DNA of 64,000 nucleotides from a virus, in IMG/VR virus record IMGVR_UViG_3300048913_000208, one strand, 5' to 3'. A program made the position numbers and the translations under genes. Position 1 is the stretch's first letter, and each line of letters begins with the position of its first letter. The notes below the pieces were generated by a model. It worked only from the letters and a program-made list of their open reading frames with translations, was not told the origin of the DNA and ran no database searches. Positions 49,571 to 53,815 of the stretch are shown piece by piece.

Positions 49571-49630
49571 TGTGCGTATACGCCGTCGGCTTGCATACCG
49601 ACGTTCAATTTGCCTAGGAGCAATACCAAG

Positions 49631-50935
49631 ATGAGCGAACTCGCTAAAATGTTGAACCAGCTGTCGGTCGAATCGGGTGCGGTAGCGCCTGAGTCCGATG
49701 AAGATCACAGCTACCTCGGTGCCGAGGAAATCACCGTCGTCACCGACGAGACCGCCACCGAGCTGGAAGAGGCCATCGCCGACACCGCCGAGAAGGTCGA
49801 GAAGATGCAAGCCTCGGACGTTGCTGCCGAGAAAGTCGCCGAAGCCGTCGACTCGCTGGAAAGCAACCTGGCTCAACTGCGCGCTATGGCCGCTGGCGGT
49901 CAACCTCTGGACAACAGCGGTATGCGCTGGTACATCCAGAACGTTGCCCTGTCGGTAGAAGCTCGCGAGCTGCCGTCGTCCCTGGTCCGTGATGAAGTCA
50001 TGGCCATGCAACACAGCTTCGAATCGGCTCAGGTGGAAGACTACACCACCGAAGCTGAAGAGAAGACCGAGGGCGTTCTGTCCCGTCTGTGGAAAGTTCT
50101 GGTCCAGGCTTTCAACTCCGCTCGCACCAGCATCAAGCAGTTCTTCGGCACCATGGGTCGTTCCGCCGACGCCATCGTGACCGGCGGTCAGCAACTGCAG
50201 CGTCTGGCTTCCAAGACCAAAGGCGAAGCCAAGAAAACCGAACTGAAGACCACCGGTTACGGTCGTCTGGGCGGTAATCCTGGCCAAGCGATCGACAAGG
50301 CCCTCCAGGTCTTCGACGGCGAGTTCACCTCCAAGGTGGTCGAGCCGATGAAGAAGGTCCTGCAGCCTGTTGTTGCCGCGCTGAAAGGCGACGTCGGTGC
50401 CAACGACCTGACCGATGCCAACTGGCAAGCCAAGTTCGCCTCCATGGGTCTGCGCGATACTTCCATCGAACTGCCAGGCGGCGTGAAGGCCGAGCTGAAG
50501 CTGAACGGCGACAAGATCACCTTCAACGTCACCAAGCCTTCTCCAGGCGCCGAGAAGACCGCTCCGCTGTCTCCTTCGGAAGTTTCCGCTCTGGGCGGTA
50601 AGCTGGTGACCCTGGGTCGCCGCATGAAGCTGGCCGAGGCGAAAGCCGAGAAGTACCTGGACGACGCCGAGAAGGTCATGAAAGCTGCCCAAGCGGCCGC
50701 CAACAAGACCGAAGGCGACGATGCCAAAGCCAAGCGTCAAGGCGTGGCGAAAGTCGTTACCACCGCTGCCCGCATCATCAAGGCCGGCGAAGGCGTGGTT
50801 CCGACCTACGTCAACTACCTGTCGCAGCTGGGTAAAGATGCCTACAACTTCGGTAAAGCCTCCCTGGGTGCCCACGGTGCCAAGGCGAAGGAAGAACCGG
50901 CTGCCGCCGACGACAAAGGTGCTGCGGGAAACTGA
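49631..50935 (+). CDS. abundant inner-body/ejection protein paralog (phiKZ gp93-family)
   Basis: AGGAG RBS; SVE/SFE/DYTTEA sites followed by GVLSRLWKVL helix; strong codon bias. Confidence 0.72.
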   Translation: MSELAKMLNQLSVESGAVAPESDEDHSYLGAEEITVVTDETATELEEAIADTAEKVEKMQASDVAAEKVAEAVDSLESNLAQLRAMAAGGQPLDNSGMRWYIQNVALSVEARELPSSLVRDEVMAMQHSFESAQVEDYTTEAEEKTEGVLSRLWKVLVQAFNSARTSIKQFFGTMGRSADAIVTGGQQLQRLASKTKGEAKKTELKTTGYGRLGGNPGQAIDKALQVFDGEFTSKVVEPMKKVLQPVVAALKGDVGANDLTDANWQAKFASMGLRDTSIELPGGVKAELKLNGDKITFNVTKPSPGAEKTAPLSPSEVSALGGKLVTLGRRMKLAEAKAEKYLDDAEKVMKAAQAAANKTEGDDAKAKRQGVAKVVTTAARIIKAGEGVVPTYVNYLSQLGKDAYNFGKASLGAHGAKAKEEPAAADDKGAAGN

Positions 50936-50955
50936 CTGGGTCCGACAACGTCGAC
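50926..50955 (+). promoter_or_regulatory. candidate -1 programmed ribosomal frameshift signal (G GGA AAC plus 3' hairpin)
   Basis: Canonical X XXY YYZ heptamer immediately before TGA; -1 frame open to 51264; hairpin 7 nt downstream. Confidence 0.7.
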
Positions 50956-51264
50956 AAATTCATTCGTGAATATAAGTCGGGGAAGTCGGACGCCCTCCTC
51001 GTCAGAACTGCCTTGCGGTTGGAGTTCAATAATTCCAAGCTTTCCGGTGCCGATATCAAAGCGACGGCTCGCGCCGCGGCCAAACAGGTCAAAGACCTGT
51101 GGCAACCGTACGAAGAGAAATCCTTCGCCCGCGAATTGGAAACGGATAAGTCGAAATGGAATGAGGACTACTTCCACCTTCAGGAAGTCTACCTGAAGAC
51201 TAACTTCTCGGAGAAACGGTTCAACCATCTGGTTGAGGTCCACGATTATCTGAAGAAGAAATAG
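50932..51264 (+). CDS. 110-aa C-terminal extension reachable by -1 frameshift from the 49631 gene
   Basis: Frame open and protein-like 27 codons upstream of the ORF-track TTG (51013), which has no RBS. Confidence 0.65.
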   Translation: MTGSDNVDKFIREYKSGKSDALLVRTALRLEFNNSKLSGADIKATARAAAKQVKDLWQPYEEKSFARELETDKSKWNEDYFHLQEVYLKTNFSEKRFNHLVEVHDYLKKK

Positions 51265-51277
51265 TCAGGCCGTAAAA

Positions 51278-51309
51278 CATAAAGCGGGGGCTTCGGCTCC
51301 CGCTTTATG
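51278..51309 (+). terminator. hairpin terminator
   Basis: CATAAAGCGGGGGC-TTCG-GCTCCCGCTTTATG, placed after the extension ORF rather than after 50935. Confidence 0.75.
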
Positions 51310-51352
51310 CTGCAGATGGTATAACTAAGCCTTACTGTGAAAGGTAACCCTC

Positions 51353-52519
51353 ATGGACTTGCTGCTGGAAGAAGATCCTTTCGAGGAGCTGGTAAGAGCG
51401 GATCACGAAGTTACGATCGCGTTCGAAGCTTTCTCTCGATTCATGAATTCCCACACCGCGTTTGAAGACTTGCTCAGTCAAGCCGGTGAAATGCCCAAGG
51501 CTTCGTTCGAAGCGTCTGCCCGTCCGTTGATGACGGCAGTCACGGGTGAGATCGGTCACTGCTGGTCTTTGGATGAGATTAGCGTGGAGTCGGTCAAGAC
51601 GGTAGCGGCGTCGGTAGTCCGCGCTGCCATCAGTGCGCTCCAACAGTTCTTCAAGGCATTGCTCGACTTCTTCTCGAACATTGACCTTGCTGCTACGTGG
51701 CTATCACGTAAGCTGAGTTTCCTGGAACGTCAGGTGGCTACCACCAAAGGCATGCGTCCTAGCGAACCTACCGTCGAGTTGGGTCGTATCGGTCGGTACA
51801 TGCGTGTACACGGCATCCAGATCGATGACGCCGGTAAGCTCGAGTCTCAAATCCATCAGCTGCACAATGTGGTCAAGGTCATGGCGATGGACTACCGTAA
51901 GGAAGTCATCGACGCGTCTGCTGAACTGCAAGCCGCAGCTCGTGGTAAGACCGGTAAGGTACTGACTGATGCCATGGTCGCTGTGATCACCAAGATCCCG
52001 TTCGACAAGATGGCATCGCAGTGCGGCATGCACGCAGCGCCGTACGATCGCTTCAAGCGCAACAATGTTCAGGCTACCCCTTCCCTGCTGGGTGGGATGA
52101 GTTTGTTCTACCTGCGCGGTGATCTGCGTGAGCGTGGTATCGACGCGTTCCGCTTCCACGGATTCCTCTTCGAGAAGACTGGTCGGAACGAACTGAAGGT
52201 TCAACGTGAATACACGTTGACTACCCTTCAGCCGGGTCAGATCGGTGAACTGCCGAGAGTGATCCGTAGTCTGCTGGACGACATCTCCAAGTCCAGTAAC
52301 TCCGGTGTACGTGCAGCGGCTAACCGTTCGCGTACCTCGTTGGATACGTTCCTGAAGACGAGCTCCTTCGCCCCGTCTGACATGGACGCAGTGCGCAAGA
52401 CGGTGAACACCCTCACGCACTGGTTGCAACAACCCACCCGTTCGCTGCTGATCCACTCAATGTCGGTCTGCCGCGCTGCGATTCAATACTGCTACGCCTC
52501 CATTAAAACCTACAGGTGA
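51353..52519 (+). CDS. inner-head protein paralog
   Basis: AFE/SFE/SVE sites followed by an amphipathic helix. Confidence 0.65.
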   Translation: MDLLLEEDPFEELVRADHEVTIAFEAFSRFMNSHTAFEDLLSQAGEMPKASFEASARPLMTAVTGEIGHCWSLDEISVESVKTVAASVVRAAISALQQFFKALLDFFSNIDLAATWLSRKLSFLERQVATTKGMRPSEPTVELGRIGRYMRVHGIQIDDAGKLESQIHQLHNVVKVMAMDYRKEVIDASAELQAAARGKTGKVLTDAMVAVITKIPFDKMASQCGMHAAPYDRFKRNNVQATPSLLGGMSLFYLRGDLRERGIDAFRFHGFLFEKTGRNELKVQREYTLTTLQPGQIGELPRVIRSLLDDISKSSNSGVRAAANRSRTSLDTFLKTSSFAPSDMDAVRKTVNTLTHWLQQPTRSLLIHSMSVCRAAIQYCYASIKTYR

Positions 52520-52522
52520 TCC

Positions 52523-53815
52523 ATGTCTGTATTCAAAACTACTCTGCAAGAGGCGTTGCGCGGTAAACTCTCGCTCGAAGCCTCCGAAGTGGTGATTCCA
52601 CCACCCTCCCACGAACTCACTGTCGAAGACGTGCAAGAAGCGCGCGAAGAACGCAGTGAGATGGCTGAAGCTCTGCACGAAGTCCAGACGAACAATTCGG
52701 CCAAGGACATGGAAGCAGGCGCTGCTGTGGTTACCGCTATTGGTGCCGCTGCCAAAGCCGCTGAAGACATGCCCGCCGCTGCTGCCGATGCGTTCGTCGC
52801 TACAGCCAACATGAACATCGCTACCGCAGAACAAGTCTTGGAGACCACCATCCCCAAGCTTGCCATGGGAAGTGACGGTGGTGTCGATGAAGTGTCGCTG
52901 GAGTCGCTGTCCGATTGGTTCGGTTCTGCTGTGAAAGCGTTCTCCGCTGCCGCTGCTCGTACCGGTGGTCGTTTGGCGCTGTCGTTCGTTCGTCTGAACC
53001 AAAGCACCGTCGGTCTTCAGAACCGTACCCGTCGTGTTCGCGACAAGGTGCGGTCTCGTAAAGGCAGCGGCGGTGTGGACATTCGTCTCCCGCAAAAGGT
53101 TCTTGAGCTATTGGTCAATGGGAGTAACTACTCTCAGGCACCGACTCACGACCTGACTGCGTTCGCCACAACCAGCCGGACCCTGACCGACATCGTGATG
53201 GAATACCACCGTCGTTGTGACCACGCGGTCAAAACGCATTTGGTGCAGGCTATCAGCGCGCAAGATCTTCCGCATGACCTGTTCGCAGGTATCCAGCAGG
53301 ACGATCTGTTCCAGCGCCTGGATGCGGTTATCAAGGCTCAACCACTCCCGCTGCTGGGTAACGTCAAGTACGCCCGCAACGAAGAGCGTATGGGTCGCCT
53401 GATGGCGTTCCACCTGCAGCAAGATGGCACGTTGGCTACCGACGTGGTCAAGTACACCGATCAGATCAAATCCCTGTCTACCGAAACCATCCTGCAATAC
53501 TGTCAGGAGTTGGATCGGGTGATTGGCGAACAGATCCGTTTGCTGGAGAAAGTGTCGGACGCCGTCAAGGTGTCTTACGCCAGCGTCGGTGTGACCATCA
53601 AGAAGTTGACCAACATGTCGACTGACGACGTCGAGGTCGAATACGACTACGAACTGGACAGCGATATCAACACCGCTGACCTGCTGCGTCTGGAGTCCCA
53701 ACTGGTGAGTGAGATCGGTCGCATCTGCGATCGTCTGAGTCGTCTGCAAGCCGACCTGCTCGCTCGTTTGGACGCCGTCCTCACGCTGGTAGAAGAGTCC
53801 GTCTTCCAGGACTGA
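52523..53815 (+). CDS. inner-head protein paralog
   Basis: SLE sites; SLESLSDWFGSAVKAF helix. Confidence 0.65.
   Translation: MSVFKTTLQEALRGKLSLEASEVVIPPPSHELTVEDVQEAREERSEMAEALHEVQTNNSAKDMEAGAAVVTAIGAAAKAAEDMPAAAADAFVATANMNIATAEQVLETTIPKLAMGSDGGVDEVSLESLSDWFGSAVKAFSAAAARTGGRLALSFVRLNQSTVGLQNRTRRVRDKVRSRKGSGGVDIRLPQKVLELLVNGSNYSQAPTHDLTAFATTSRTLTDIVMEYHRRCDHAVKTHLVQAISAQDLPHDLFAGIQQDDLFQRLDAVIKAQPLPLLGNVKYARNEERMGRLMAFHLQQDGTLATDVVKYTDQIKSLSTETILQYCQELDRVIGEQIRLLEKVSDAVKVSYASVGVTIKKLTNMSTDDVEVEYDYELDSDINTADLLRLESQLVSEIGRICDRLSRLQADLLARLDAVLTLVEESVFQD

Follow-up and report, generated by a model that had tools for sequence, protein, structure and literature searches.

A probable programmed -1 ribosomal frameshift predicted to append a five-helix domain to an internal head protein of an uncultured jumbo phage

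Xu, Hendrix and Duda are said to have described, in 2004, the frameshift that yields the G/GT tail assembly chaperones of lambda-like and many tailed phages. The locus analyzed here lies in a window of 64,000 nucleotides (the whole stretch of viral DNA under study) and resembles that system in that a -1 programmed ribosomal frameshift (PRF) would take place on G GGA AAG/C close to the 3' end of the upstream gene, would add a C-terminal extension to a small, set proportion of the protein, and appears to be kept across very divergent sequences, with the type of slippery site changing by lineage. Predicted GGGAAAC sites have been noted directly before the TGA of the tail chaperone gene of Burkholderia phage KL1 (PMC3483164) and in Caulobacter phage Colossus (PMC3556154). 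Unlike in G/GT, however, the gene of the window encodes a head-interior protein of family PF12699, is followed by internal head protein (IP) paralogues and by no adjacent tape-measure gene, and carries an extension that is a self-contained globular domain, also found fused in frame and in bacteria. The two systems share no sequence homology, so that the locus falls outside the tail chaperones and the likeness is one of mechanism only.

A second point of comparison is provided by the -1 frameshift of the T7/T3 major capsid protein 10A/10B, the Qbeta A1 readthrough protein, and Orsay virus (PMC5009743), in which, as proposed for the window, the 3' end of a gene for an abundant virion protein is recoded, and in which the C-terminal extension is borne by a minority of the subunits built into the particle. 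These are outward-facing extensions of the shell, whereas the carrier in the window is an inner-body protein, of the kind co-injected in phiKZ, and its extension would therefore be internal cargo; the T7 site is also non-canonical and its extension short, unlike those considered here. Finally, dnaX gamma/tau and the IS3-family transposases share with the window an X XXA AAZ site followed 5-7 nt downstream by a stem-loop, in bacterial translation, but the dnaX shift truncates its protein where that of the window would extend it, and no conserved upstream Shine-Dalgarno (SD)-like enhancer was found in the window. In a literature search of limited scope, internal head proteins of the phiKZ type were nowhere described as frameshifted; the recoding of an inner-body protein appears unreported, and the -1 PRF mechanism itself is canonical.

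The features on which the argument is built are the following:

49631-50935, plus strand: gene for a phiKZ_IP-family internal head (inner body) protein, 434 aa, 0 frame, Pfam PF12699
50926-50932, plus strand: putative slippery heptamer G GGA AAC (X XXY YYZ, 0 frame), read as GGA and AAC in the frame set by ATG 49631
50933-50939, plus strand: 7-nt spacer between heptamer and stem-loop, made of TGA (50933-35) and CTGG
50932-51264, plus strand: -1-frame extension, 110 codons and TAG, predicted to encode one complete five-helix domain of an uncharacterised family
50940-50991, plus strand: predicted stimulatory stem-loop of 52 nt, three stacked helices and a UUCG loop at 50963-66 (minimum free energy [MFE] fold and covariation)
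50940-46 with 50985-91, plus strand: helix S1 of the folded stem-loop
50949-55 with 50976-82, plus strand: helix S2 of the same fold
50958-62 with 50967-71, plus strand: helix S3 of the same fold
51013-51264, plus strand: gene-caller ORF of 83 aa with a TTG start, a truncated reading in which the TTG is domain residue 28
51281-51306, plus strand: GC-rich hairpin then TTTAT, terminator-like as read from the sequence, closing the unit of IP gene and extension

The 0 frame of the IP gene ends GGT GCT GCG GGA AAC TGA, with its stop at 50933-50935 and the heptamer directly 5' of it. The -1 frame, preceded by a stop at 50854, is open from 50857 to 51261 and ends with TAG at 51262-64; when read from CTG 50932, it comprises 110 codons (LTGSDNVDKFIREYKSGKSD...). 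Between the stop at 50854 and position 51013, this frame holds no ATG, GTG, or TTG, the TTG at 51013 being the only one in frame. Tandem slippage predicts a junction peptide ...GAAGN-LTGSDNVDK, that is, ...GAAGNLTGSDNVDK. An earlier note, made by reading the sequence, had proposed this gene end, this open frame of 110 codons, and a junction peptide LTGSDNVDK, and all three are borne out, the last under tandem slippage by translation of the -1 frame. The locus thus combines the canonical marks of -1 PRF, namely a slippery heptamer, an open -1 ORF devoid of its own start, a structure 5-9 nt downstream, which is the canonical spacing of stimulators (Atkins et al. 2016, PMC5009743), and conservation.

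On this basis, we consider it highly probable that a programmed -1 frameshift yields a 544-aa long form of the internal head protein. Most ribosomes would stop at TGA 50933 and release the 434-aa protein, and a minority would be held up, GGA being occupied by tRNA-Gly and AAC by tRNA-Asn, because of the 52-nt stem-loop then standing at the mRNA entrance, 7 nt downstream. Both tRNAs would slip one base back, to GGG and AAA, and decoding would resume at CTG 50932, now in the -1 frame, and run on over 110 codons to yield 544 aa with the junction ...AAGN-LTGSD... and hence, as predicted, an internal head protein bearing a complete five-helix domain on its flexible C-terminal tail. Both the occurrence and the rate of this slip are inferred.

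The heptamer itself shows several signs of selection. In the long ORFs of the window, the background frequency per codon of an in-frame X XXY YYZ is about 1e-3, and that of XXXAAAZ is 1.7e-4. In the window and in three related lineages (L008, L009, and L010), the GGA of the heptamer is the sole GGA among the 37-44 Gly codons of the gene, which in the window is strongly biased (GC3 of 0.73; 36 GGT/GGC vs 1 GGA for Gly), and because of this bias its product is presumed to be abundant. The codon 5' of the GGA varies (GCG, CAG, and AAG, for A, Q, and K) with a third base that is always G, and G GGA AAC is identical in L008, L009, and L010 despite the differing preceding codon. As judged from these alignments, the heptamer is under constraint at the nucleotide level, independently of the 0-frame residues that it encodes. 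AAC in the A site is known to shift more weakly than AAG in Escherichia coli (PMC5009743), and an AAAGGTG lying 5 nt 5' of the heptamer of the window, a candidate SD-like enhancer, is not conserved in the relatives.

The predicted stem-loop begins 7 nt 3' of the heptamer and has an MFE of -24.2 kcal/mol (z -2.5), and the same architecture is found in four relatives, at -23.7 to -33.5 kcal/mol (z -2.9 to -6.5). In the alignment of these five sequences only, from which covariation was computed, 91.6% of the cells are paired, as against at most 43% when the partners are slid, and five pairs show compensatory changes, the observed values being reached in 0 of 500 shuffles; those of L009 carry non-conservative amino-acid swaps, D to S and S to E, in the two arms. 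The pairing of GTCCGAC at 50940 with GTCGGAC at 50985, which had been put forward as a mere alternative, turns out to be the base of this 52-nt structure. The small hairpin at 50940-50955, initially favored as the stimulator, is rejected: about 3 bp can form, and it is absent from every MFE or consensus fold. As for more distant lineages, L017 has a structure of its own (-31 kcal/mol) 5 nt 3' of its heptamer, and the downstream structures of L020, L022, L038, and L039 are not significant (z -1.0 to +2.0).

The related split lineages, retrieved by exact-protein look-ups, were ten in number. In nine of them the domain ORF lies in the -1 frame and in none in the +1 frame, and seven have a canonical XXXAAAZ heptamer within the short 0/-1 overlap (G GGA AAC in four, G GGA AAG in two, and C CCA AAG in one), as detailed below:

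Window, L010, L009, and L008: G GGA AAC, directly 5' of TGA
L017: G GGA AAG, 3 nt before TAA, overlap of 13 nt
L020: G GGA AAG, 15 nt before TGA
L022/L011: C CCA AAG, at the first codon at which the -1 frame opens
L005: G GGG AAG, not canonical; IP 60% identical; a GTG matching CTG 50932 overlaps the stop (GTGA)
L038: GCA AAG TAA, -1 frame, no canonical heptamer
L039: GTG GGG GAG TAG, -1 frame, no canonical heptamer

Relatives thus either retain GGGAAAC or replace it with the canonical GGGAAAG or CCCAAAG, in keeping with what the earlier note had expected of a genuine shift site. The opposite pattern, loss of the heptamer together with a start codon of the ORF's own, which the same note had named as evidence against frameshifting, is seen in L005, hence in a single one of the ten split lineages. 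There, coupled initiation could plausibly yield a free-standing protein of 115 aa, because the GTG overlaps the stop behind an SD-like GAGG. In L020, a TTG 8 nt after the stop would retain the whole domain, making a free-standing reading possible.

These observations bear on a first alternative, the main rival of the frameshift, in which the domain would be produced as a separate 110-aa protein by translational coupling: ribosomes would reinitiate on the near-cognate CTG 50932 (CTGA) after TGA 50933, and the stem-loop would block independent 30S entry, so that expression would depend on upstream translation. This is what L005 suggests, with its GTG at the position of CTG 50932, its SD-like GAGGGG 4 nt upstream and its degenerate heptamer; likewise, AAGGGA precedes the CTG in L009 and L010, RNAalifold can pair CUGAC (50932-36) with an invariant downstream GUCAG that would hide the start, and domain-sized ORFs with plausible starts of their own do exist, such as the one of L020 (TTG). 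However, CTG is a very poor bacterial start, and its position is conserved in the close clade only: in L017, L022, L038, and L039 the stop is overlapped by no NTG, and in L022 nothing ahead of conserved helix 1 could serve as a start codon, not even a near-cognate one. Reinitiation would further leave unexplained the three heptamer types found in seven lineages, the unique GGA, the strict -1 phase, and the in-frame fusions described below, and the one lineage with a start codon, L005, is among the three -1 lineages without a canonical heptamer, a complementarity that PRF predicts. We therefore judge separate synthesis by coupling improbable and retain the frameshift as the preferred reading.

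If the -1 frame is read by shifted ribosomes, it should be coding from the heptamer onward. A profile of 52 homologues aligns to the extension from 50935 on (E 1e-44), so that homology begins one codon past the heptamer and not at TTG 51013. In the 27 codons that precede this TTG, the variable columns are distributed as 9/10/17 over the three codon positions (a third-position excess), synonymous changes equal or exceed non-synonymous ones in most pairs, and no stop occurs in any relative, when the other two frames are full of stops; at the ACN codon at 50935, all four third bases are found across relatives. To judge from this pattern of substitutions, the -1 frame shows coding constraint all the way back to the heptamer. 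AF2 models the extension with a pLDDT of 96.2 and a pTM of 0.88, as five helices (residues 5-16, 21-33, 39-52, 78-90, and 94-109), and the 27 codons ahead of the TTG (LTGSDNVDKFIR...) form helix 1 and most of helix 2, at pLDDT >90.

A second alternative holds that the 83-aa ORF starting at TTG 51013 is the real gene and that the conserved stretch from 50932 to 51012 is non-coding RNA, such as a leader or a regulatory stem-loop. This TTG is indeed the sole canonical start, which is why gene callers pick it or, in relatives, a later ATG, and a conserved RNA structure does occur in the region. Yet no SD precedes it, the supposed start shifts among relatives (TTG, ATG at another codon, or later ATG), and the 27 upstream codons, coding-like and stop-free in relatives, can be aligned to the N-terminal helices of homologues of all three kinds (fused, bacterial, and free-standing), with Arg25 among the matched residues. 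Structure prediction goes the same way, with upstream residues modelled at pLDDT >90 against 0.63 for the truncated 83-aa form (from an Atlas model, hence by another method than AF2 and indicative only). TTG 51013 is a truncated reading and not the true N-terminus, because the domain would be left without helix 1, the greater part of helix 2, and Arg25, which is invariant in the family; the initial suspicion that this start, devoid of a ribosome-binding site, cuts off a protein-like segment proves right, the TTG lying 27 codons inside the domain. An independent 83-aa gene is accordingly very unlikely. We also considered ATT 50962 as a start and rejected it, as it is ATC in L008 and L005 and sits inside helix 1.

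The domain, present in a single copy within the 64 kb, has 209 homologues at E<=1e-3. Searches of Pfam and PHROGs gave sub-threshold matches only (bpX0, E 0.012; DUF7441, E 0.04), those of PDB by sequence and by Foldseek gave nothing, AFDB clusters contain unnamed or "transmembrane protein" entries only, and nothing informative came from Atlas. Among its long homologues, 17 of 20 are in-frame fusions of PF12699 and the domain, mostly C-terminal, which makes at least 17 other phiKZ_IP protein clusters with such a fusion; relatives with an in-frame fusion, for which the earlier note had proposed to look, are therefore many. In P0028, which lies in a tandem IP gene cluster, the domain is 56% identical from extension residue 3, and gp029 of Edwardsiella phage pEt-SU is of the same type, with IP and domain in frame. 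ORF205 of 0305phi8-36 is a virion protein by mass spectrometry. The fusions P0028, P0048, P0043, P0040, and pEt-SU gp029 resemble the predicted long form in having both modules, in unchanged order and with a low-complexity linker between them, with 45-56% identity to the extension over the domain. They are made by ordinary translation, and every copy therefore bears the domain, whereas in the phage of the window and its orthologues only the frameshifted fraction would carry it. Separately, L040/L041 show a possible UGA readthrough to the same architecture.

More distant phages often have the in-frame fusion, so that the ancestor may plausibly have been fused and the split might be thought an artefact (a sequencing or assembly indel) or a decay product (a frameshift mutation of recent date, with the C-terminal domain left as a pseudogene). 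This is scarcely credible, for contigs of four runs from four independent studies span the junction without indels, the same-phase split is kept in orthologues of as little as 33% identity, in which purifying selection acts on the domain, and a dead domain would be expected to lose its open frame, the unique rare codon, and the covariation of the stem-loop. A sequencing error at 50926-50935, named at the outset as a possible undoing of the reading, is thus absent from the contigs of all four studies; the runs that clearly hold the stretch include no RNA run, and a run with a small share of it (X14) is labelled RNA-Seq cDNA.

The identity of the carrier is well supported. The product of the IP gene matches PF12699 with E 4e-14 and 53.1 bits (cutoff 27) over profile positions 5-379 of 387 in a Pfam profile search, and PHROG 2497, "internal head protein", in a PHROGs search; its C-terminal tail is variable and rich in Ala, Lys, Glu, and Gly. 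Downstream, a paralogue at 51353-52519 reaches 43.4 bits against PF12699, above the 27-bit cutoff, and a third IP-like gene at 52523-53815 scores 24.2 bits, below it. The gene thus belongs to a tandem cluster of IP paralogues in a jumbo-phage head module, with synteny preserved in contigs of 188-243 kb, and its orthologues in syntenic metagenomic jumbo-phage contigs are 33-65% identical where measurable. Its closest protein relative is from Pseudomonas phage pPa_SNUABM_DT01 (24.7%), which lacks the extension ORF. Megablast of 49600-51350 against GenBank phages gave no match, scans of IMG/VR for relatives returned 0 and 1 locus, and a scan of JGI metagenomes returned solely a contig identical to the window across the match. 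The phage is uncultured and known from metagenomes only, those of its clade coming from roots, rhizosphere, and plastic surfaces. The terminator expected beyond 51264 has a counterpart in the hairpin at 51281-51306, near-identical 3' of the extension ORF in L005, L008, L009, and L010; a simple consensus terminator scan made no call there, because the T-tract is short. Rfam contains no frameshift element matching the locus, its only match being a sub-threshold CrcZ-like one on this terminator hairpin.

PF12699 inner-body proteins are the bulk protein cargo injected with the DNA by phiKZ-like phages. Those of phiKZ and SPN3US are present in virions, cut by the prohead protease, and ejected, and phiKZ packages and injects inner-body proteins that bear mNeonGreen at the C-terminus (bioRxiv 10.1101/2024.03.24.586471). 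Because phiKZ inner-body proteins tolerate such fusions and are co-injected, the long form would by analogy be packaged at low copy through its IP part and enter the host with the DNA. An A-X-E-like motif, AKE, read by eye in the IP tail, could let the prohead protease free the domain.

As for the domain itself, the resemblance to an uncharacterised bacterial helical domain, suggested in the earlier note, is real: homologues occur in Pseudomonas, Paraburkholderia, and Aeromonas. The only cellular ones are membrane proteins of the tail-anchored type, in which the domain occurs twice, and in 15 of 15 loci of these three genera their gene lies directly after that of a dynamin-family GTPase. It is tempting, though rather unlikely to be right, to see in the domain a dosed, ejected effector mimicking a dynamin-partner module, which would steer host membrane remodelling or block a dynamin-based defence. 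If this were the case, the early lipid vesicle of nucleus-forming phages would be an example of a target, and selection would act on stoichiometry, on which account fusion, -1 frameshifting on three heptamers, and possibly UGA readthrough would converge.

The recoding mechanism being a textbook one, the advance concerns the site of its use and the domain that it would attach, and not its workings. A conserved recoding signal suggests that, in one clade or more, a single inner-body protein is produced as two forms at a set ratio. Standard annotation misses or truncates a well-folded domain, as gene callers start at least 27 codons late; the present reading corrects it for a group of uncultured jumbo phages and defines a domain family of more than 200 clusters devoid of a Pfam entry. 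The putative signal is a compact cassette of about 70 nt that comes with natural covariation variants. Finally, through this domain the head cargo of phages is connected with a bacterial operon that encodes a dynamin-like GTPase, a connection that offers a testable lead on what ejected proteins may do.

The gene of a phiKZ_IP-family internal head protein (hereafter IP) ends on a slippery heptamer beyond which the -1 frame stays open for 110 codons, and we consider it highly probable, from the sequence, that a programmed -1 ribosomal frameshift (PRF) at G GGA AAC joins the two frames. This reading rests on the cis elements, on their conservation and covariation, on coding constraint that extends to the heptamer, and on in-frame fusions among homologues. 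The features concerned are as follows:

49631 (ATG) to 50933-35 (TGA), + strand: IP gene in the 0 frame, last codons GGT GCT GCG GGA AAC TGA
50926-32, + strand: slippery heptamer G GGA AAC, in X XXY YYZ phase and abutting the stop
50857 to 51261, + strand: open -1 frame closed by TAG 51262-64, with 110 residues from CTG 50932

Both the heptamer directly before the stop and the -1 frame open for 110 codons had been described in the earlier note and are indeed present. The background frequency of in-frame X XXY YYZ heptamers in the long ORFs of the window is ~1e-3 per codon, and that of XXXAAAZ is 1.7e-4; it is thus improbable that a gene would terminate precisely on a perfect one by chance. The IP protein matches PF12699 (E 4e-14) and PHROG 2497, the next two genes also match PF12699 (the second slightly under the gathering cutoff), and the strong codon bias of the IP gene (GC3 0.73; glycine GGT 18, GGC 18, GGA 1, GGG 0) would fit high expression. 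In the four lineages with GGGAAAC, the heptamer's GGA is the single GGA among the 37-44 glycine codons of the IP gene, and the codon ahead of it encodes A, Q, or K with a third base that is invariably G. Since GGA is unique and the preceding codon varies yet ends in G, the constraint at the heptamer is, judging from these alignments, exerted on nucleotides and not on the 0-frame protein.

No close GenBank phage was found for the window; its relatives, recovered by exact-protein look-ups, are metagenomic contigs that reach 243 kb and keep synteny, all with a 300-aa gene followed by a 171-aa gene, an IP of ~440 aa, a small ORF, and an IP of ~388 aa. Identity to the window's IP is 65% in locus L008, 62% in L009, 60% in L005, and 57% (partial) in L010, and, among more distant loci, 45% in L038, 42% in L017, and 33% in L022.

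Junctions in the window and related loci
Window: GCG GGA AAC TGA; canonical G GGA AAC, -1
L010, L009: AAG GGA AAC TGA; canonical G GGA AAC, -1
L008: CAG GGA AAC TGA; canonical G GGA AAC, -1
L017: GCG GGA AAG GAA TAA; canonical G GGA AAG, -1; 0/-1 overlap of just 13 nt
L020: TTG GGA AAG, 15 nt, TGA; canonical G GGA AAG, -1
L022/L011: GAC CCA AAG, 21 nt, TAA; canonical C CCA AAG, -1; -1 frame opening exactly at the heptamer
L005 (3993-4004): GAG GGG AAG TGA; non-canonical, -1; stop overlapped by GTG
L038 (1939-1947): GCA AAG TAA; non-canonical, -1
L039 (327-341): GTG GGG GAG TAG; non-canonical, -1
L040/L041: domain in frame behind a single TGA

The phase is -1 in nine of the 10 split lineages and +1 in none. 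As to whether relatives keep the heptamer, a canonical XXXAAAZ, be it GGGAAAC or another type, is found in 7/10 split lineages, in three sequence types and at varying distance to the stop, within tails that are otherwise not alignable. The junctions of L005, L038, and L039 may be single-tRNA slippage sites adjoining the stop codon. A phage lineage rich in AT (38% GC; L040:1926-2243 and L041:890-1207) has the domain in frame after a TGA (GAA TGA AAG ...) that ends a 370-aa, weakly IP-like gene (PF12699 E 0.084). TAA ends six of the contig's eight genes, the TGA is retained in two diverged strains, and programmed UGA readthrough may here yield the same IP + domain architecture.

The same extended stem-loop is found 7 nt downstream of the heptamer in all five close sequences (-23.7 to -33.5 kcal/mol, z -2.5 to -6.5), with the following stems (window coordinates):

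50940-46 with 50985-91: S1, 7 bp
50949-55 with 50976-82: S2, 5-7 bp
50958-62 with 50967-71: S3, 5 bp, capped by a tetraloop

On the alignment, 91.6% of cells are paired, whereas sliding the 3' partners leaves 43% or fewer paired, both sides change in five pairs, and the observed values are reached by 0 of 500 shuffles. Two consecutive S1 pairs are replaced in L009 (G-C to U-A, A-U to C-G), and because these exchanges cost non-conservative amino-acid changes in both arms, they argue for selection acting on the RNA. The small hairpin proposed earlier at 50940-50955 is unsupported, its 50940-46 arm pairing with 50985-91 instead. Among more distant loci, L017 has an unrelated structure (-31 kcal/mol) 5 nt past its own heptamer, and no significant downstream structure was found in L020, L022, L038, and L039. 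RNAalifold also pairs the invariant CUGAC at 50932-50936 (last heptamer base, stop, and C) with an invariant GUCAG at ~51001-51005, 70 nt apart; this candidate pairing would enclose the whole stem-loop and shows no covariation. Further downstream (51281-51330, and at the same place in L005, L008, L009, and L010), TTTATGCTG and then a conserved GGTATAAC motif, just ahead of the next IP gene, come after a near-identical GC-rich hairpin, GCGGGGGC-TTCG-GCTCCCGC; the arrangement resembles a conserved module of terminator and phage promoter.

What the frameshift is predicted to make is found elsewhere as a conventionally encoded protein, because in-frame fusions, which the earlier note had suggested looking for, occur among homologues: 17 of the 20 homologues of 400-600 aa combine a PF12699 protein with an in-frame copy of the domain, mostly at the extreme C-terminus after a low-complexity linker. 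One of them (P0028, 574 aa), whose gene closes a tandem IP cluster, shares 56% identity with the extension, starting at residue 3 of the extension. The same architecture is found in gp029 of the cultured phage pEt-SU, and ORF205 of Bacillus phage 0305phi8-36, a virion protein by mass spectrometry, carries the domain.

The GTG that L005 places at the position of CTG 50932, after an SD-like GAGGGG and with the canonical heptamer lost, speaks for a serious rival, coupled initiation at the CTG overlapping the stop, which we nonetheless hold to be unlikely: the NTGA overlap is limited to the close clade, L022 is without any possible start, and coupling leaves the heptamers, the rare GGA codon, and the in-frame fusions unexplained. 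Besides, three of the -1 lineages lack a canonical heptamer, and L005, the sole lineage with a start codon, is one of them, as expected if the heptamer is functional elsewhere. L005 may have switched mechanism or, alternatively, may slip on G GGG like L039.

That a separate ORF truly starts at TTG 51013, the sole ATG/GTG/TTG in the open -1 frame (50857-51261), is very improbable, being contradicted by the coding pattern and domain homology of the stretch from the heptamer to this TTG. Over 50935-51012, the frame is open in all relatives with stops in both other frames; variable columns number 9 at first, 10 at second, and 17 at third codon positions, with all four third bases seen in the ACN codon at 50935; and the stretch, in which the family-invariant Arg25 lies, aligns with the domain N-terminus of homologues that are fused, free-standing, or bacterial. 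By these three comparative measures the stretch is translated, so the ribosome must be in the -1 frame by 50935, and the sole entry routes are a frameshift or initiation at CTG 50932. The 110-aa product matched no Pfam or PHROG family; a search of 1.8 billion cluster representatives gave 209 homologues of it (E<=1e-3). AlphaFold2, with 52 of them as alignment, models it as a five-helix domain (pLDDT 96.2, pTM 0.88). Since the family profile aligns from 50935, one codon past the heptamer and thus before 51013, and since the TTG (residue 28) comes after the whole of helix 1 (residues 5-16) and the larger part of helix 2 (21-33) in the model, the annotated 83-aa ORF is, by profile and model, a truncated reading, as the earlier note had proposed. 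An artefactual or decaying split, including a sequencing error at 50926-50935, is least credible of all, as the stretch is under coding constraint and contigs of four runs, each from a separate study (metagenomes of root, plant, and plastic, and one labelled organism), cover 50700-51320 free of insertions and deletions, with 0-5 substitutions per contig piece.

Under the frameshift reading, tandem slippage of Gly GGA to GGG and Asn AAC to AAA would give the junction ...AAGN-LTGSD... and, at a low percentage, a 544-aa protein whose IP part would carry the domain into the prohead. As phiKZ inner-body proteins with C-terminal mNeonGreen are packaged and co-injected with DNA (bioRxiv 10.1101/2024.03.24.586471), a natural C-terminal domain should, by analogy, reach the host cell. 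The IP tail also holds an A-X-E-like motif (AKE, read by eye); motifs of this type are cut by giant-phage prohead proteases (PMC10052503), and the domain might be released inside the head by such cleavage.

Structure searches found no solved structure resembling the domain, and its AFDB cluster matches are unnamed bacterial proteins. In all 15 bacterial genome loci (L023-L037; Pseudomonas, Paraburkholderia, Aeromonas; for example L029:57-3570), a ~300-aa protein with two domain copies and a C-terminal transmembrane helix is encoded directly 3' of a 752-aa dynamin-family GTPase gene (PF00350, E 7e-18), a neighborhood that offers a lead on domain function. A conserved 105-aa ORF is also present in 14/15 loci, the three-gene order being 105-aa ORF, GTPase, tail-anchored protein.

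The window's signal is by its sequence a canonical bacterial-type -1 PRF signal, whose nearest counterparts in logic are those of the tail chaperone G/GT and of T7 10A/10B; the IP itself lies outside both protein families. A GGGAAAC site immediately before TGA, as at the end of the window's IP gene, is predicted in the tail chaperone of Burkholderia phage KL1 (PMC3483164). In the literature searched, recoding was not reported for any internal head protein of phiKZ type. Beyond the mechanism, the interest of this case lies in the breadth of its conservation, in a new domain family, and in the alternative evolutionary solutions encountered, namely fusion, three heptamer types, and possible UGA readthrough.
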